Source of the DNA: an uncultured Acidobacteriaceae bacterium
GTDB lineage: Bacteria > Acidobacteriota > Terriglobia > Terriglobales > Acidobacteriaceae
Assembly: GCA_963799025.1 (NCBI GenBank)
Contig: CAWCVQ010000014.1
Span: forward strand, 4,182 to 68,181
DNA length: 64,000 bases
Reading direction: 5' to 3'
Made by a program: the position numbers and the translations under genes. This document shows, one piece after another, positions 4,611 to 28,847 of the stretch (the stretch's first letter is position 1; every line of letters begins with the position of its first letter). The notes under the pieces are model-generated. The model saw only the letters and a list, made by a program, of their open reading frames with translations, did no database searches and was not told the DNA's origin.

Positions 4611-5690
4611 ATGCCTTCGATAGCTGTCAGACTGAATCTCTTCTCTGCTATGACTTCCGAGGCGAACTCGCGTGTGCTATCGGACTTTCTCAATTACCTG
4701 CGTATTGAGAAGGGACTGGCGCGACTAACGATCAGCGCTTATAGCACTGACATACTTCAATTCGCCGAATTCCTGGAAAAACGAAAGCGGCTCCTGTTCA
4801 CCGCGCGCCGCGACGATGTGCGAGAATTTCTGCAGCAGCTTTTTTCTCATCAAGTAGACGCGCGAAGCGTGGGACGGAAGCTTTCCGCGCTGCGCCACCT
4901 CTATCGCTATCTGCTGCTCGATAAGAAAATCGATTACGATCCAACCTTGAATATTGAATCGCCGCGCCAGTGGAAAGTATTGCCGAAATCGCTGGCGCGT
5001 GATGAAGTCGATTCGACACTGGCCTCTCCGTTTGCGCGGCTAGCGGGAAATCGTAATTCGAAGGATGCGGCAGCCCTGGCGGCTCGCGATCGGGCCATGC
5101 TGGAACTTCTCTACGCAGGAGCGCTTCGAGTTTCGGAGATGGTGAATGCCACCCTGGAAGATTTGAAGCTGGAATCCGGGTACATGATCGTGCGCGGCAA
5201 GGGAGAGAAGGAACGCATCGTACCGCTGGGCAGACCGGCACAGGACGCGCTTGCGGAATATCTAGCGCAGGGGCGTCCTGCGCTAATCGAGAGGCGGGCG
5301 TCGAAAACACCCCACCCTTCGACAGGCTCAGGGCAAGCCTTCTCGCAAAAGACGCGAGAAATGGGACACCCAAGCCCGATTATCAAGGGTCTGAATTCTC
5401 CAGTTCTGTTTATCGCCCGGGGCGGTAGAAAATTAACCCGGCAGCGGGTGTGGCAGATGGTCGGCGCCGCGTCGGTTGCTTCCGGACGGCACGCGTCACC
5501 GCACATGATGCGGCACTCTTGCGCCACCCACATGGTGGAGAACGGGGCGGATCTTCGCACTGTGCAGACCATTTTGGGCCACGCAGACATTTCAACCACG
5601 CAGGTATACACGCATGTAGCAATGGACCGGTTAAGGACCGTGTATCGGGCGCATCATCCGAGGGCGAAGGCAAGGCGAGGCAATTGTTGA
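4611..5690 (+). CDS. xerD: Tyrosine site-specific recombinase, XerD-like, with an in-frame ~34-aa insertion
   Basis: 359 aa. The N-terminal SAM-like domain reads FLNYLRIEKGLARLTISAYSTDI. The catalytic region has RDRAMLELLYAGALRVSE, HMMRHSCATHM and a C-terminus LGHADISTTQVYTHVAMDRLRTVYRAHHPRA, which resembles E. coli XerD (from memory). The true start may be the Met at 4650 (MTSEANS). Confidence 0.85.
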   Translation: MPSIAVRLNLFSAMTSEANSRVLSDFLNYLRIEKGLARLTISAYSTDILQFAEFLEKRKRLLFTARRDDVREFLQQLFSHQVDARSVGRKLSALRHLYRYLLLDKKIDYDPTLNIESPRQWKVLPKSLARDEVDSTLASPFARLAGNRNSKDAAALAARDRAMLELLYAGALRVSEMVNATLEDLKLESGYMIVRGKGEKERIVPLGRPAQDALAEYLAQGRPALIERRASKTPHPSTGSGQAFSQKTREMGHPSPIIKGLNSPVLFIARGGRKLTRQRVWQMVGAASVASGRHASPHMMRHSCATHMVENGADLRTVQTILGHADISTTQVYTHVAMDRLRTVYRAHHPRAKARRGNC

Positions 5691-5757
5691 TTGTTGATTG
5701 GAAATCATCGCAAGCGTTTCTTGGTGAGCTTTTCAATCAACAATCAAAAATCAACAA
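5684..5757. repeat. Heptad direct repeats forming a 14-bp perfect inverted repeat between xerD and xerC
   Basis: The left arm is ttgttgattgttgattg (5684-5700) and contains the xerD TGA at 5688-5690. The right arm is caatcaacaatcaaaaatcaacaa (5734-5757) and abuts the xerC ATG. TTGATTGTTGATTG (5687-5700) is exactly complementary to CAATCAACAATCAA (5734-5747). The loop is 33 nt. Confidence 0.7.
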
Positions 5758-6662
5758 TGACCAAGGCGCGCACCATCGTCGAGAAAGCAGTAGCAGATTT
5801 TCTCAGCAACCTGGGCGAGCGCAACGCCTCGCCGCACACCATCAAAGCGTATCGCGGAGATCTAGTGAACTTCGCTGCGTACGCGGGTTCGCGGGGATGG
5901 AAATCGCTCGACCACATCGCGATTCGCGGATTTCTCGCGCAGCTTTACGAAAAAGGTTTGGGCAAGACTTCCGTGGCGCGATCCCTGGCGGCGGTGAGAT
6001 CTCTCTATCGCTGGCTCGCGCGGGAGGGCGTGGTCGAACAGAATCCCGCAAAACTTGTGGCGACACCCAAGCTGGCCAAGAGACTTCCGCGCGTCCCGAC
6101 CATTGAAGAGATGAACTCTGTGCTCGACTCGCAAATGCCGGCAACGGCATCTTTTCCCGAGCGCGACCGACTGATGCTCGAACTGCTCTATGGATGCGGC
6201 GTCCGCAACTCGGAGCTGATCGGAATCAATCTCGACGACATTCGCCTGAGCGCCGAAGCAATTCTGATTCGTGGTAAGGGAAAGAAAGAACGCTACGTTG
6301 CGTTCGGCGATTCGGTAAAGAGCGCTCTGGCAGCTTATCTTCCGGCGCGACAGGCGGCTCTGGCAGAAACCCGCAAGAACACGTCAGCGCTGCTCATCAA
6401 TCAGCGCGGCGGTCGGTTGACCACCCGCAGCGTAGGCCGCATCATCAAAAAAATCGCCGTTGCGAACGGCCTTTCGCCGGACGTACATCCCCACACCCTA
6501 CGCCATGCCTTTGGCACGCACATGTTGGAAGAAGGCGCCGACCTGCGCGCTATTCAGGAATTACTCGGCCACGAGCGTCTTGCCACTACGCAGCGCTATA
6601 CGCAACTCTCCATGAAGCACGTTCTTCACGTTTACGATCAAACGCATCCTCGCGCGAAATAG
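5757..6662 (+). CDS. xerC: Tyrosine site-specific recombinase, XerC-like
   Basis: The ORF is 5691..6662. The likely start is [16 protein letters not shown] at 5757. Motifs present: [45 protein letters not shown], and the C-terminus [32 protein letters not shown], which is XerC-like. Confidence 0.85.
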
Positions 6663-7715: not shown

Positions 7716-10466
7716 GGCGCCTGCTTCAAGCTTTCGCAGACCCTCCCACATCGCAACGATGCGTCCTCTCAGATCGGCAGTAAGCTTTTCGTAAGCCTCT
7801 TCGGAAGCTTCTGATTCCGGCGGCGGACTAATTGAATCGCCGAACGCCATCTTGAGCGGCGCGAAGCCGCGAAACTTTTGGTTTCGTGGCCACACCCCAT
7901 GAAACCCTTCAATCGCTACAGGAATGATGGGCACTTGCAAATGAATCGAAAGAATCGCCGCGCCCTTCTTGAAGACTCTAGGTACGCCGTCGATCGAACG
8001 CTCCCCTTCGGGGTAGAGCACGAGCGCCATCCCATGCCGCAGACCGAAAGCACCGGCGCGCATCGCCGGAACCAAATTCGCGTCCGGATCGACGACTACA
8101 ACCTTGATGGATCGCGCCAGGCGGCGCATCACTCCCGTGCCGAAGATTTCGCTGGTCCCCACGGCAAAAGCTCTGAAGAATACTTCTGGCGGCAAAACGC
8201 TCGCCAGTATAAGCGGATCGAGATAGCTCTGATGGTTCGACGAAATAATGCACGGCCCAGTTTTGGGGAGTTTGTCAAAGCCCGTCACCTTCAAATGAAA
8301 AAGATCGAGCGCGACCACTTGCATCAGTCGCGTCACCAGGTACCAGAACGTGTCGTTGAACCGATTGGAATGGGCTAGCGCACGGATTTCCGGATCGTCA
8401 GGCTCTTCAGCCAGGATCGACTTCCATCCCGCGAAAGTGACCCGCGTTCCGGCCCCACCCGCGCCGCTGGCTGCGCTTTGCAATACCGCGTCGACCAGAT
8501 TGCGGACGGTGTAGATCTCGGTTAGTTGAGACTCTTCAACGTTGCCTCCAAGTTCCTCTTCCAATCGGCTGAGCAACTCGACCCGCTGCATGGAGTCGAA
8601 GCCGAGATCAAGATCCAGGTTGAGGCTGGGCCGCAGAGTAGGTGGGACGTTGGACGCGGCCTCGCGGATGATCTTCAAAGCGCGCTCGACGTCGGGCTGA
8701 TCGAGCCATGCGGTTTCTTCCGCGGTTAACGGTTTCTCCGCCGGCAGGTCCGACTCGTCCGCGACTTTGTTCGATTGATTGGCTCTGACCCGCTTCTCGA
8801 CCTCAAAACGTTTGATTTTGCGTGTCGTCGTACGGGGCAAGTCTTCCTGCCAGATTTCGTAGCTGCCAATGCGCTTGGTGGAAGCGATTCCGGGCGACAT
8901 GCCTTCAATATCGAAACGGATGGCTTCCTTTGCGTTGACAATCTTGCGCTGCCGCAGCGTATCGAAGTTTGGAACAATCACGGCGTGCAGGCGATCGCCG
9001 CCTTCGCCGGGTTTACCCTCAAGTCCCATCACCGCCATTTCCTTGATGTACGGCGACTTCAGGTAATAAGATTCGATCTCTTCCGGATAGACATTCTTAC
9101 CGTTGCTGAGAACGATCACTTCTTTCTTGCGCCCGGTCAAGAACAGGTGGCCGTGGGAATCGAAATAGCCGAGATCCCCGGTGAGAAACCATCCGTCGCG
9201 CAGAACTGCGACAGTCGCATCGGGACGATTCCAATAGCCTTTCATCACCATCGGACCCCGCACTGCGACCTCGCCAACCGGGGCGGAATCTTCCTGCGGC
9301 TGCGGGTCAACAATTTTGCCCTCGACGCCCTTCAGGGCCTTGCCGACCGAGCCAATCTCGTTGTCGTGGGGCGAATTGGCGAAGACCCCCGCGGTCGTTT
9401 CTGTCAGGCCGTAAGCCTGCAGCACGTCGATGCCGAGATCGTGGAAAGCTCGCGCAATCCCAGGGTCGAAGCGCGATCCGCCGGTGACCAGGTACCGCAT
9501 CTTTGGTCCCAGAGTGTCATGCACTTTACGGAATAAGATCGGGCCCGCATTGATTCCGATTTTGCGCAACATGCGATTCATCGCGACCATCCCGGCGAAA
9601 ATTTTCCGGGCGATCGCTCCTCGCTTCGCAACCTCCTGAGTTAAACGTTCATAAATCAGGTAGAAAAATTGCGGCACGACCGCGAAAGCGGTAATGTTTC
9701 GTTCGCTCAAGGCCCGCAACAGTTCAGTGGTGTTGAGCGTTTCCAGATACACCACCCGGGAACCCTTGACCAGAGGGAGCAGCAGATTGGCCATCTGCGC
9801 CAGAACGTGAAACAAGGGCAGCACGCCCAACAGCGCGTCCGTCGGGCCGAGATCGACCCAATCGAAGACCGCCTCGACTTCCCCGATGAAATTGGAATGC
9901 GTCAACATCACACCTTTGGGATCTGCGGTGGTGCCCGAGGTGTAGAGCAGGGATGCGAGGTCGTCGTCCTTCGACGTAGCCGCTTTGAAGTTGCCCGGGC
10001 CGGCATCGAAAATCGCGGGCAGATTGCCGAGCCAACGTTCTGCGGTGGAATGTTCATTCATGCGGTCTGGATCCATCAGGATCAGGCCCAGCTTTAACTC
10101 CGTGACCGCAGCGCCTACGAGCGCAAGATGTTTTACATCGCAGAACACGGCGGAGGTTCCGCTGTCCTTCAGAAGCTTGGTAACCTGATCGTCGTGCAAG
10201 GCGGTGTCAAGGGGAACGGCTGCGCAACCTGAGGCGATGATTCCCAAATAAGCGGCGACCCAACGCGGATGATTATCGGCAAGAATCGCCAACCGCGACC
10301 CGCGATGAAATTTGTTTTCCGTGATCCAGCAGCCTACCGATTCGGCCATGCGGCGCAGTTCGTCATACGTACAGCTTTCGAGGTGATCGTGGCGCTGCAG
10401 TTCCAGCGCAACGTTGTCCGGCCAGCGTTGCGCGCACTCGACAAAGCGGTCGTAGAAAGTGGGCAT
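7653..10466 (-). CDS. Tri-domain fusion: acyl-AMP ligase (AMP-binding), carrier (PP-binding) domain and PlsC-type lysophospholipid acyltransferase
   Basis: 937 aa. AMP-binding motifs are LLYTSGTTADPKGVMLTH, AYGLTETTAG, GDLGYFDSHGHLFLTGRKKEVIVLSNGKNVYPEEIE and TTRKIKR. The carrier domain reads LDLGFDSMQRVELLSRLEEELG (Ser codon near 8592). The acyltransferase has SNHQSYLDPL (HX4D) and YPEGERS. The 3' end overlaps the convergent gene 6801..7715 by 63 nt. Confidence 0.85.
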   Translation of the reverse strand: MPTFYDRFVECAQRWPDNVALELQRHDHLESCTYDELRRMAESVGCWITENKFHRGSRLAILADNHPRWVAAYLGIIASGCAAVPLDTALHDDQVTKLLKDSGTSAVFCDVKHLALVGAAVTELKLGLILMDPDRMNEHSTAERWLGNLPAIFDAGPGNFKAATSKDDDLASLLYTSGTTADPKGVMLTHSNFIGEVEAVFDWVDLGPTDALLGVLPLFHVLAQMANLLLPLVKGSRVVYLETLNTTELLRALSERNITAFAVVPQFFYLIYERLTQEVAKRGAIARKIFAGMVAMNRMLRKIGINAGPILFRKVHDTLGPKMRYLVTGGSRFDPGIARAFHDLGIDVLQAYGLTETTAGVFANSPHDNEIGSVGKALKGVEGKIVDPQPQEDSAPVGEVAVRGPMVMKGYWNRPDATVAVLRDGWFLTGDLGYFDSHGHLFLTGRKKEVIVLSNGKNVYPEEIESYYLKSPYIKEMAVMGLEGKPGEGGDRLHAVIVPNFDTLRQRKIVNAKEAIRFDIEGMSPGIASTKRIGSYEIWQEDLPRTTTRKIKRFEVEKRVRANQSNKVADESDLPAEKPLTAEETAWLDQPDVERALKIIREAASNVPPTLRPSLNLDLDLGFDSMQRVELLSRLEEELGGNVEESQLTEIYTVRNLVDAVLQSAASGAGGAGTRVTFAGWKSILAEEPDDPEIRALAHSNRFNDTFWYLVTRLMQVVALDLFHLKVTGFDKLPKTGPCIISSNHQSYLDPLILASVLPPEVFFRAFAVGTSEIFGTGVMRRLARSIKVVVVDPDANLVPAMRAGAFGLRHGMALVLYPEGERSIDGVPRVFKKGAAILSIHLQVPIIPVAIEGFHGVWPRNQKFRGFAPLKMAFGDSISPPPESEASEEAYEKLTADLRGRIVAMWEGLRKLEAGASGASASGLSAEGSGEAVEHE

Positions 10467-10626
10467 GGGTCGTGGCGAATATACACGAAAAAAAGCGTGG
10501 GCCGCAGGAAGAGCGGGTGTTTTCGCGCTTCAAGGAATGGTCCTTACCCGCGCGCCAAGCAGGTTTAGGCCAAACATCTTCAGATTGCCAGGTAGGAAAT
10601 TTGGCACCAGGAATGAAGCGCGTTTC

Positions 10627-11259
10627 TCAGGGCTTCTTAGATTGTGGCGGCGGCTGTTCCGCCTTGGCGATGGCTTTGCGGAATTCCTCGACGGCCGTAA
10701 CGCTGGGCTCGCGCAGAGAGTCCTTGGCGATGTAGCGCCACACCGCCGGAGAATCCAACGGATATTGCCCGTGGCCGCGATACACCTCAAATGTATCTTC
10801 GGAGGCGCCGACCTCAGTGCTCATGCGGGGGCCATTTAGCGGCGGTCCCGCTGCCGGATCGCTCAGCGGAGGCGGTTGACCCTGCTGCCCGCCAATCCGA
10901 ATGCCTCCGTCCGTCGACTGTGCCGTACCCGGCCGTTGATCAATCGGGCCACCCTTGATACTGGGCTGCATCATCTTCCCGCTGCCGGTGCGAACGGCGA
11001 TCACAAGGTCAGCTTCCTCCCCCGCCATCACCAGGCGGAAGCGGCCCCATTGCATGAGTGCCTTCTCCACGCTGTCGCGGGCGGTGGCATTTGCCATCGG
11101 CCGGTCAACCGGTTCGCCCGCATCGGGGCTTATCACGACCAATGCCGTGGTAGCCCTCAATACTTCCTCTGGCAGCGTGGATTTCTTTTTATCTTTCGCG
11201 TTCGCGGGGACAACCAAGAGCGCGGTCAAGAGGACGAGCGAAGAGACGCGTGTAGTCAT
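10627..11259 (-). CDS. Hypothetical exported protein
   Basis: The ORF is 10627..11328. The likely start is MTTRVSSLVLLTALLVVPANA (signal peptide) at 11259. I recognise no domain. Confidence 0.55.
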   Translation of the reverse strand: MTTRVSSLVLLTALLVVPANAKDKKKSTLPEEVLRATTALVVISPDAGEPVDRPMANATARDSVEKALMQWGRFRLVMAGEEADLVIAVRTGSGKMMQPSIKGGPIDQRPGTAQSTDGGIRIGGQQGQPPPLSDPAAGPPLNGPRMSTEVGASEDTFEVYRGHGQYPLDSPAVWRYIAKDSLREPSVTAVEEFRKAIAKAEQPPPQSKKP

Positions 11260-11410
11260 GGCAAGACTCCGTGACCAGCGACTGACGCCGCCATTATACT
11301 GTAGGTGCGCCGGGCGTGCTCGGCGCATGCTTCATCATGGGCTTGGCTCGCATCTAATGTGCTAGGCTTTAAAGGTATCTTGGGCGTGCTGCCCCCTGAA
11401 GGAATTCCGG

Positions 11411-14452
<3,042 letters not shown>

Positions 14453-26672: not shown

Positions 26673-28847
26673 TTGTTTCGATATCTGGAACATCGCCTTG
26701 CCCAGCGCGTGCTGGAGTGTCTGCAGCGCCGCTATCCCAACACAACTCTGCCTGGGGTGGTCATCGAACAGCCTCCAAAGGTCGAACTCGGAGACTTCGC
26801 GATTCCGATTTTTCCCTTCGCCAAGCCACTGCGCTCGGCCCCATTGAAGATCGCAGAGGCGATGCGTGCGGAGATTGGGAAGATCGAAGGAATCGCCCAG
26901 ATGCAAGTAGCTCCCCCTGGGTATCTGAATGTGAGCATCGACCGGACATGGATGGCCTCGACCCTCGCGGCCGACGCGAAGCCGCCGGTAGAAATTCCTC
27001 ACGGCAAAATTCTGGTCGAACATTCGAGCATCAATCCCAACAAGGCCGCGCACATCGGCCACCTGCGCAACGCCATTCTTGGCGACACATTCGTCCGTCT
27101 TCTGCGCAGCGCGGGCAGGGAAGTCGACGTCCAGAACTACATCGACAATACCGGAGTGCAGGTCGCAGACGTGGTAGTGGGCTTCACTCACATCGAGAAG
27201 AAATCTCGCGCGGAGATCCTTGCTCTCACGAAACAGCCGCGCTTCGACTACTACTGTTGGGATCTCTACGCCCAAGTCTCGAAGTGGTATGAAGCGGACA
27301 AGCAGAACCTGCAAGTACGGCAACAGATATTGCATGCGATAGAAGATGCGACAACCGAAATTGCTGCAATCGCCGACCTGATCTCGGTTGCTGTGTTGAG
27401 CCGCCACCTTGAAACCATGGACCGGCTCGACATCGAATACGATTTCCTTCCGCGCGAAAGTGAAATCTTGCACCTGCACTTTTGGGACGCGGCCTTCATC
27501 AAGCTCAAAGAAAGTGGCGTGCTCACCTTCGAGAGCGAGGGCAAGAATAAAGGTTGCTGGGTAATGCGGCGGGCTGGCACCGCAAGGTCTCTAACCATAG
27601 AAGAAACGGCCGAAGTCGAAATCGAAGCGCAAGATCTCCGGGTGGACATTTTCGCTTCGCCAAAAGCTCAAGATGCGTCAGTGCGCATCACACATATTCC
27701 TACGGGAATTGTAATGACGTCCGACAGCGAGAGTACGCAGCATAAAAATCGTGAGCGCGCGATGTTCCTTCTCCGTTCCAAGCTCCTGGAACTCGAAGCT
27801 GAAAAGATTTCCGAGGAAGACCAGAAAGTCATCGTCCGCTCCAACGGAACCGTGGGCTACGTCGGCAAAGACATCGCCTATCACATGTGGAAGTTCGGAT
27901 TGCTTGGCCGCGACTTCGGCTACCGGAAGTTCTATCGCTATCCCAACGCTCACGACTGCTGGATATCCACGACGAATGGCGAAAAGAACCATCCCCACTT
28001 CGGCGACGTCGCCGAAATCTATAATGTCATCGATGCCCGGCAATCCGAGGCTCAGAACACAGTCATTGAAGCGCTGCGTGGACTCGGCCACGACGCGGCC
28101 GCGGACCACTATACGCATTTCTCCTACGAGATGGTCGCGCTGACCCCGCGCTGCGCTGCCGAACTCGGTTACACCCTGAGCCATGAAGACAAGACACGTT
28201 CCTACATTGAGGTCAGCGGACGTAAAGGTTTTGGAGTGAAGGCCGATGACCTGCTCGACACGCTTATCGCCTCGGCCAAAAATGAAGTCGACTCGCGCCA
28301 TCCGCAGCTCAGCGACCCCGAACGCCGAGAAATTGCCACGCAGATTGCCACCGGCGCTCTGCGTTATTTCATGCTGAAGTTCACCAAGCAGTCGGTAATC
28401 GCGTTTGATTTCAAAGAAGCGCTCAGCTTCGAAGGCGAGACTGGACCCTACGCTCAGTATGCGGTGGTGCGTGCCACCAGCATCTTCCGCAAAGCGGAAG
28501 TCGATCCTGAAACTTTCGGTGCATCCCCGGCCAGCATCATCTCGCCAGCGGATTTAGTGAACTATCTGACCGGCGATACCGGCAACGAATTCTGGGAGCT
28601 GTGGCTCGCGTCTTCGAAAACTTCCTATGTGATCGACAAATGCATTGCCACCACGGAGCCCGCATACCTGGCGAAACATGTTTTCCAACTCGCGCAGCTG
28701 TTCAACACTTTCTATCACCGTCATCCCATCCTCAGTGAACCGGAGGAGGGGCGGAAACGTTTCCTGCTGGCCACCGTCGCCGTGGTGCGCCGCGAAATGA
28801 TTCGCTGCCTCGCGGTGATGGGAATCACGGTGCCGCCAGTCATGTAA
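26673..28847 (+). CDS. argS: Arginyl-tRNA synthetase carrying an inserted release-factor-like domain
   Basis: 724 aa. The HIGH region is [38 protein letters not shown] is present. The DALR anticodon-binding C-terminus reads [10 protein letters not shown]..., [20 protein letters not shown], and the protein ends ...GITVPPVM. Confidence 0.95.
   Translation: [724 protein letters not shown]
27567..27818 (+). other. In-frame RF1/RF2-type peptidyl-tRNA hydrolase domain fragment (GGQ loop missing) inside argS
   Basis: Residues ~299-382 read [83 protein letters not shown]. E. coli RF2 (from memory) reads [64 protein letters not shown]. Confidence 0.8.

Follow-up and report, generated by a model that had tools for sequence, protein, structure and literature searches.

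The stretch of DNA analysed here, referred to below as the window, is 64 kb long and comes from an uncultured Acidobacteriaceae bacterium (GCA_963799025.1, contig CAWCVQ010000014.1, forward 4,182-68,181); all coordinates are window positions. It includes argS, the gene for a 724-amino-acid (aa) arginyl-tRNA synthetase (ArgRS), and inside this gene lies, in frame, a stretch of about 65 aa copied from domain 3 of a class-I release factor (RF), with RF2 as its nearest catalytic relative and with the catalytic GGQ loop replaced. Homologous to RF domain 3 and folded, this module can neither catalyse release nor read codons. The gene and the parts of the inserted region are as follows.

26673..28847, + strand: argS, 724-aa ArgRS with a TTG start (Pfam, NCBIfam and PDB sequence search).
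27609..27803, + strand: GGQ-less, RF2-type domain-3 module, aa 313-377 (Pfam RF-1, AlphaFold2 (AF2), Foldseek, omega (dN/dS) and GC content at third codon positions (GC3)).
27633..27653, + strand: strand beta1 of the module, DLRVDIF, equivalent to 'DLRIDxxR' of RF2.
27654..27680, + strand: short variable loop ASPKAQDAS (9 aa) in place of the catalytic SGxGGQHVNxTxS of release factors, unconserved among carriers, none of which has GGQ.
27681..27725, + strand: strands beta2 and beta3; their VRITHxPTG turn is conserved, its R, H and P/G being invariant or almost invariant, and IVMTSD comes after it.
27732..27803, + strand: long helix corresponding to RF helix alpha7, still net basic (AF2 model and charge count).
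27567..27608, + strand: N-terminal part of the native acidic Ins2 loop, aa 299-312, not RF-derived; relatives without the insert carry RRAGTAK..STTEDTEDTEEDKITEEDQK here.
27804..27827, + strand: C-terminal part of the native acidic loop, KISEEDQK, kept in relatives with and without the insert.

The region had been picked out in a sequence-only reading, which described an RF2-like block at 27567-27818 embedded in ArgRS; the translation is exactly as quoted there, and the length of the product is 724 aa. The predicted nesting of PF00472 inside tRNA-synt_1d, together with a DALR domain, was found by Pfam. RF-1 (PF00472) matches aa 313-390 with 47.6 bits (gathering score 35), and tRNA-synt_1d (PF00750) is detected as two halves with the insert between them, along with Arg_tRNA_synt_N (PF03485; Add1) at aa 8-88 and DALR_1 (PF05746; Add2) at aa 595-724; PF03485, PF00750 and PF05746 are each above their own cut-off. 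The excised block alone scores 52.6 bits against RF-1 (E 5e-14), and its best NCBIfam RF match is prfB, at profile positions 215-300, with prfA close behind. In the PDB sequence search aa 309-386 align to residues 226-310 of E. coli RF2, and the module is 42-43% identical to this protein in structural alignment. Pfam gave no match to PCRF (PF03462), and ArgRS sequence flanks the module directly on both sides. A module-specific DNA pattern matched once in the window and in none of 100 shuffles.

The proposed superposition on domain 3 of RF2 and RF1 was also borne out. The module alone, modelled with AF2 from a 40-sequence alignment, has the topology E-E-E-H, with a predicted local distance difference test score (pLDDT) of 84.5 and a predicted template-modelling score (pTM) of 0.71. 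The top 50 Foldseek matches in the PDB are all class-I RFs (RF2, RF1, mtRF1 and PrfH), with query-normalised template-modelling (TM) scores of 0.80-0.84 and root-mean-square deviations (rmsd) of 1.3-1.6 A. The full-length AF2 model of the 724-aa protein has a pLDDT of 62 and derives from a shallow multiple sequence alignment (49 sequences, all at least 78% identical), which makes it too poor to show where the module lies with respect to the active site or tRNA.

The insertion is real, but the RF-derived part is smaller than the ~84-aa block first delimited. Close relatives without the insert are mostly 666 aa long and have an acidic low-complexity loop of ~29 aa at this position (site 1), and since the flanks of the module are shared with them, only aa 313-377 (~58-65 aa) are RF-derived, the rest of the block being native acidic loop. 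The canonical loop had been given as about a dozen residues long, which agrees with the 11-13 residues at the insertion point in the ArgRS of P. horikoshii and T. thermophilus (PDB sequence search). The loss of the GGQ loop in favour of a shorter one also stood. In the IVMTSD segment that follows, the module has S-D where most RFs have C-Q or C-D.

The remaining parts of the synthetase include three further landmarks.

27048..27062, + strand: class-I HIGH signature, AHIGH, aa 126-130, intact and invariant across 49 aligned homologs.
27828..27881, + strand: Arg-recognition strand and helix, GYVGKDIAY with Y396 and D400, corresponding to E. coli Y313 and D317 by alignment.
28494..28583, + strand: loop of the anticodon-binding (Add2/DALR) domain, here called site 2, aa 608-637, uninterrupted in the window and host to a homologous module in some relatives.

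The ArgRS equivalog model TIGR00456 matches the product with 268.3 bits (cut-off 261.65), and with the subtype model NF002447 the match, split by the insert, reaches 419.8 of the 460 required (NCBIfam). The closest solved structures are the ArgRS entries 2zue and 1iq0 (PDB sequence search), and Y396 and D400 are invariant in the 49 homologs. In E. coli ArgRS, Ins2 comprises residues 258-311, directly followed by the Arg-binding residues Y313 and D317 (PMC3956977). The insertion site is the distal loop of Ins2, because the equivalent Y396 and D400 lie only ~10 residues past the insert. On a role of Ins2 in tRNA binding the literature yielded domain boundaries only, a tiarin preprint naming Ins2 in a figure legend alone. 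The low omega of the synthetase core (0.09) suggests that the enzyme is active.

In the window the genes run polyprenyl synthase, TatD, methionyl-tRNA synthetase (MetRS), LarC, argS, alpha/beta-hydrolase, patatin, ADH and peptidase S15, an order that is identical around an insert-less ortholog; the LarC gene adjoins argS in 22 carrier loci. Judged by the neighbours shared with insert-less orthologs, argS probably occupies the orthologous housekeeping locus of Terriglobales or Ca. Sulfotelmatobacter-like bacteria. The nearest genomes are all metagenome-assembled genomes (MAGs) named Terriglobales, Acidobacteriaceae or Ca. Sulfotelmatobacter. Neither a second argS nor a prfB was found within the 64-kb window; no tRNA genes were found in it, and no Rfam families at 24-31 kb.

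To describe how widely such enzymes occur, which the sequence-only reading had left to a homology search, we collected carriers from several sources. Among the 120 best homologs, ~35 have PF00472 (69-91% identical, 711-732 aa; from JGI, ENA, NCBI and Logan), and a DNA-pattern scan of metagenomes added ~24 further site-1 carriers. The alignment holds 49 distinct site-1 sequences (at least 49 overall), with a module identity of 50-93%. GGQ is absent from the 49 site-1 carriers, as well as from five carriers at site 2 and more than 20 carriers among glutamyl-tRNA synthetases (GluRS), and the loop that replaces it is 4-9 aa long with no residue conserved among carriers. Two homologs (P0061 and P0063) have a divergent module at site 1, with flanks that differ. 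A total of 185,579 species-representative genomes were scanned as well; among the matches listed (80 loci) there was one site-1 module (L002) and one at site 2 (L017).

The metagenome pattern demanded S/C-D where RFs have C-Q and was meant to exclude true RFs. This mark was rejected, as many genuine RF2 genes have C-D or S-D at this position and 83 of the 120 metagenome matches were true RFs; ArgRS, GluRS and other carriers were nevertheless among the matches. A search of representatives clustered at 50% identity returned no ArgRS carriers, presumably since the cluster representatives lack the insert. The last large protein search with the module profile returned short RF fragments only and was uninformative on further large hosts.

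The same module is found at two other places in synthetases. Six ArgRS (P0086, P0113, L017 at about 6050-6250, L156, L165 and L175) have a homologous GGQ-less module in the DALR/Add2 loop and a short native loop at site 1. A GluRS on a soil-metagenome contig (L108:3138-4496, + strand; PF00749, 287 bits) has a nested RF-1 domain (52 bits), as do ~24 of its 120 best homologs; the GluRS carriers are L108, L207-L211, P0271 and P0281-P0305, some of which are recorded in NCBI as 'glutamate--tRNA ligase family protein' of Terriglobales or Ca. Sulfotelmatobacter. The GluRS cassette is clean, carriers reading SEKSG[PVKVDPKDLRVDTF...KNREKALLMLRERLSEG]xRGTWLF where insert-less relatives read ...SERSGAQGTWLF. 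It lies within a putative zinc-binding domain, the pZBD, which contacts the tRNA acceptor arm, and all the carriers are at a single chromosomal locus adjoining a GAF-GGDEF-HD gene. The domain boundaries are identical in the three insertion contexts (ArgRS Ins2, ArgRS Add2 and GluRS pZBD), and the GGQ-less modules of all three make up one homologous set confined to this lineage. By record names only, five GluRS carriers (ERZ25039480, ERZ25039587, DASXAE, DASSLS and JASHNU) show no overlap with the 80 genomes typed for ArgRS.

The pZBD of GluRS contacts the acceptor nucleotides A73 and C74 as well as GatCAB, and its length varies; some bacteria with a glutaminyl-tRNA synthetase (GlnRS) have even lost it (PMC4381286). 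In one GluRS carrier (L208) a gene for a 652-aa GlnRS, without an RF-1 match, lies at 9152-11110, 2.5 kb downstream of the module-bearing gltX; this neighbour is relevant because the pZBD has been reported as dispensable in bacteria with GlnRS.

GGQ-less RF-1 domains also occur outside synthetases. A free-standing protein of 129 aa (P0121), found on 51 contigs (the longest 59 kb), consists of two such modules in tandem; it is labelled 'protein subunit release factor A' at JGI and was the top module-profile match among 1.8 billion representatives. Small phage proteins with a GGQ-less RF-1 domain were read on several contigs (L082-L086, of which L082/L085, L083, L084 and L086 are IMG/VR contigs; L104; L187). 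PHROGs and BFVD hold further short phage RF-1-domain proteins of 64-136 aa (phrog_20323, phrog_19918, A0A410T5J5, D9I667 and others). Overall the phage proteins range from 64 to 210 aa, and some are fused to unrelated C-terminal regions. A 79-aa fragment on a 519-nt contig (P0482) has a GGQ-less module starting IDPKDLRIDT..., preceded by sequence unlike ArgRS or GluRS; on so short a contig it may be a further host protein or a stand-alone gene.

To trace the origin of the modules, the comparison set was split into RF1 and RF2 by decoding motifs. Domain 3 of the RF2 type was closest for every module group (46/46, 5/5 and 20/20 sequences). The groups are 48-53% identical to one another and 49-54% identical to RF2, and they are farther from the sampled phage versions (39-44%). 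In all groups the GGQ loop is gone, as are the Cys that RFs have in C-Q/D and the Arg of their RSQ motif, and the fold-determining D, R, H, N, A and L are invariant in all three contexts. Identity alone does not separate a single capture followed by spread from repeated capture from prfB.

Two observations on prfB genes stand beside these comparisons. Some genuine RF2 genes that have both GGQ and SPF (L087, L093, L119, L139 and similar) form a group with S-D (...GIAVHSDGERSQHKNR...) where most RFs have C-Q; they bear the same signature as the ArgRS module and are the RF2s most like it (~59%). In one Acidobacteriota MAG (L003) a genuine, GGQ-bearing prfB (5299-6441) lies ~4.3 kb upstream of argS (10746-12200) on the same strand, a proximity that could favour illegitimate recombination between both genes.

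Selection on the module was estimated as NG86 dN/dS. For the module core of 24 ArgRS carriers, omega has a median of 0.166 and is 0.15-0.23 in the least saturated pairs, compared with 0.091 for the rest of the gene. In six GluRS carriers it is 0.06-0.2 where dS is measurable, and the dN of the module is usually ~2-3 times that of the host gene. Divergence of module and host is positively correlated (rho 0.35). The inserted DNA had been judged by eye to be more A/T-rich than its flanks, and this holds at the third codon position: GC3 of the module in the window is 0.52 against 0.69 +/- 0.04 for the rest of the gene, in which no window of equal length is as low. The GC3 of the module is below that of its host gene at 23 of 24 ArgRS loci and at all six GluRS loci; the ArgRS means are 0.60 and 0.72, with an amino-acid-controlled expectation of 0.73 (Wilcoxon p 2e-7). 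The difference (~0.12) persists in spite of deep host divergence, and relaxed codon selection is one explanation for it.

The loop that receives the module in our gene (window 27567-27827) holds other contents in relatives (P0018, P0020, P0095, P0099, P0100; L005, L010, L013, L023, L032, L050 and L055), that is, NS repeats, KPNED repeats or an unrelated insert family of ~60 aa (...AKKK...DDLDDxLVEIPLKPGVDIRPSG...). The ~60-aa insert was considered as a decayed RF module and rejected, as the hidden Markov model of the module matched those loops only at E >= 0.12 and Pfam found nothing in them. These comparisons indicate that the Ins2 loop is a hypervariable, replaceable region and that the module is dispensable yet constrained where present.

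The reading that we prefer, tentatively and at somewhat less than even confidence, is that the module serves as a non-catalytic binding appendage through which ArgRS and GluRS gain one more point of contact with RNA in the translation machinery. The module would be a pseudo-enzyme domain, retained in a folded state for binding. The beta-sheet and the basic helix alpha7 are kept, and in RFs these pack into the 50S A-site/peptidyl-transferase cleft near the CCA end of the tRNA, so that the additional contact could be either docking to the ribosome or contact with the acceptor end. Its benefit would be conditional rather than essential, which would account for close relatives without the module. 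Contact with RNA is favoured because of the native partners of the fold, the basic helix (net charge +1.8 to +3.2), the placement in the pZBD of GluRS, the dependence of both host synthetases on tRNA, and the precedents of PrfB3 and Balon, two GGQ-less proteins described below. ArgRS and GluRS both require tRNA for amino-acid activation (PMC3956977).

Several points weigh against such an appendage, beginning with the fact that every step of the mechanism is inferred. The module is distributed patchily: with the insert regions masked, an ArgRS tree requires 31 parsimony changes in its presence, against 44 +/- 2 with tip states shuffled. A carrier (P0006) and a relative with an NS-repeat loop (P0099) are 98.5% identical outside the loop and differ in the entire loop, so the module can be dispensed with. 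Domain 3 of true RF2 has a charge of +2.5, whereas the whole module, at -0.3 to +1.0, is close to neutral; together with the Arg of RSQ lost in all groups this weakens the case for rRNA binding in the manner of RFs. Sites 1 and 2 of ArgRS are far apart (Ins2 and Add2/DALR), which makes a single fixed geometry to the tRNA unlikely. As the host loop takes unrelated inserts and repeats and the pZBD of GluRS is dispensable with GlnRS, the sites may simply be permissive, and the purifying selection could reflect the mere cost of a misfolding insert in an essential enzyme.

These points lead to a serious rival, to which we also give a substantial if lesser chance, namely that the module is a tolerated passenger. 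A fragment of an RF gene would have been captured once or a few times in permissive loops, and would be functionless and recurrently lost or swapped, with selection keeping only fold and solubility. The variable contents of the Ins2 loop, the whole-loop differences between hosts 98.5% identical and the patchy distribution all fit such a history, as do an omega and a dN two to three times those of the host gene and the lower GC3 in 23/24 and 6/6 hosts, which is expected of less constrained codons. The dispensability of the pZBD in the presence of GlnRS (PMC4381286), with a GlnRS gene near gltX in L208, points the same way. The case for a passenger is limited by the recurrence of one domain with the same boundaries at three sites in two synthetases, for which chance capture is hard to invoke. 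Further, an omega of 0.15-0.2 is sustained over dS above 1, although plain deletion would be harmless here, and the fold core is conserved in all three contexts. Stand-alone GGQ-less versions in phages and cells also argue that the dead domain has a use of its own. The other explanations are progressively less likely.

One of them, quite unlikely in our view, is a mobile in-frame cassette, transferred from gene to gene by recombination and tolerated by synthetase loops; mini RF-1 genes, either of phages or stand-alone, may have seeded it. The identical boundaries at three sites, the patchy presence and absence and a base composition distinct in nearly every host would be expected of it, and possible sources are common, given the mini RF-1 genes of phages (phrog_20323, BFVD hits, L082-L086) and the tandem two-module protein on 51 contigs. 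In the window the cassette is in addition flanked by a short repeat.

27622..27628 and 27793-27799, + strand: 7-nt direct repeat TCGAAGC, the copies 171 nt apart, flanking the cassette.

A deletion between the copies would restore an acidic loop of the insert-less type in frame, though the significance of this is uncertain and the repeat may be a chance match in GAA-rich DNA. The modules of different sites are, however, no nearer to each other (48-53% identical) than to RF2, which means that any transfer must be ancient, and cellular RF2 (0.49-0.54) is nearer to them than the phage versions sampled are (0.39-0.44). The positive correlation between module and host divergence also speaks against movement, and Pfam found no transposase, integrase, Hint/intein or endonuclease match in argS or the nine neighbouring proteins scanned.

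We regard it as very improbable that the module is a cryptic hydrolase or editing domain, which would cleave esters at the tRNA 3' end (mis-acylated or peptidyl-tRNA) by means of non-GGQ residues. Its fold does descend from a peptidyl-tRNA hydrolysis domain, and in GluRS it sits in an element that touches A73 and C74; to our knowledge, neither ArgRS nor GluRS has an editing domain itself. The loop in place of GGQ is, however, short (4-9 aa) and without a conserved residue, the Cys and the Arg of RSQ, further conserved RF residues, are also lost, and catalysis by RFs requires the ribosomal peptidyl-transferase centre. No known editing domain (CP1, YbaK/ProX, AlaX) was matched in argS by Pfam or NCBIfam, and the Foldseek matches were release factors only. 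An artefact of assembly or annotation, in which reads of argS and prfB would have been joined into a chimera that the sequence-only reading had asked to exclude, has a negligible chance: the window itself is a single assembly, but at least 49 distinct carriers come from independent assemblies in four sources with the module in frame, they have diverged (50-93% module identity) under purifying selection, and prfB is absent from the window.

The preferred reading of a binding appendage can be taken further, in a speculative form that we consider rather unlikely. The module would be a disarmed RF 'finger' by which at least two class-I synthetases, ArgRS and GluRS, of a lineage of soil acidobacteria dock to the A-site/peptidyl-transferase cleft or the CCA end, and it would couple charging to the ribosome for channelling, for detecting ribosomes that are vacant or hibernating, or for quality control. 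It would then be an RF-derived bacterial analogue of the appended domains of eukaryotic synthetases, with phage mini-RFs exploiting the same site.

The tRNA cycle has synthetases at one end and release factors at the other, and we know of no instance of a domain common to both. Here two essential synthetases of a single bacterial order contain a disarmed RF domain, at three sites in all, and selection maintains it. Should the module bind the ribosome or the 3' end of the tRNA, bacteria would have a new link between charging and translation, and experiments a natural, separable handle. If it is only a passenger, it would show with unusual clarity how a domain is inserted repeatedly into essential enzymes, and would mark permissive sites (the Ins2 and Add2 loops of ArgRS and the pZBD of GluRS) that are usable in protein engineering. 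Mini RF-1 domains without GGQ, present in phages as well as in cells, form a broader and uncharacterised class, to which the finding also directs attention.

The insert does not correspond to a catalogued ArgRS insertion domain, and no description of an RF-1/GGQ domain inside any aminoacyl-tRNA synthetase was found in PMC open-access or bioRxiv full text, in line with the novelty first supposed. PF00472 is already tagged in these proteins by public pipelines, and it appears that nobody has remarked on it.

Among known systems, domain 3 of RF2 and RF1 (PF00472) is the closest, with homologous sequence and the same beta-beta-beta-alpha7 fold (TM 0.80-0.84). The module differs from it in being embedded within another enzyme, without the GGQ loop and without domains 1, 2 and 4, in having lost the Cys and the Arg of RSQ, and in its near-neutral charge. 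Neither mark of a functional release factor is present, that is, neither GGQ nor a PCRF domain with PxT/SPF or, instead of the latter, an ArfB-type C-terminal tail. The stand-alone and ribosome-integrated proteins ArfB/YaeJ, ICT1 (mL62) and PrfH are built on the same RF-1 domain, and PrfH is among the fold matches of the module. ICT1 doubles as a structural mitoribosomal protein. All three keep GGQ and hydrolytic activity, and ArfB and ICT1 have an anchoring C-terminal tail; the module has neither.

Loss of GGQ with a change of role has precedents. PrfB3 of land-plant chloroplasts is an RF2 derivative that has lost GGQ and SPF, does not act in termination, and protects the petB 3' end as an RNA-binding protein (PMC5897788). 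It is a free-standing, RF2-related paralog of eukaryotic organelles with no host enzyme, whereas the module, in which GGQ is likewise lost, is domain 3 only. The hibernation factor Balon, an RF homolog without GGQ, fills the A site of the ribosome and, without catalysis, extends to the peptidyl-transferase centre (PMC10901736). Unlike the module, it derives from archaeo-eukaryotic aeRF1/Pelota rather than RF1/RF2, and it is a free, three-domain protein that works with EF-Tu.

The mini RF-1 proteins of phages and cells (phrog_20323, phrog_19918, the 76-aa proteins of Acinetobacter phage Henu6/133, and P0121) have the same small domain; they are free or fused to unrelated C-terminal regions, and at 39-44% identity to the synthetase modules they are more distant than RF2. 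Accessory domains of synthetases, such as the EMAPII-like tRNA_bind domain of the neighbouring MetRS in the window, Add1 of ArgRS and the pZBD of GluRS, are likewise grafted on or in a class-I core and add contacts with RNA or protein; none of them is RF-derived, unlike the module. Not a categorically new system, the module-bearing synthetases combine two known kinds, the accessory domains of synthetases and the GGQ-less derivatives of release factors.

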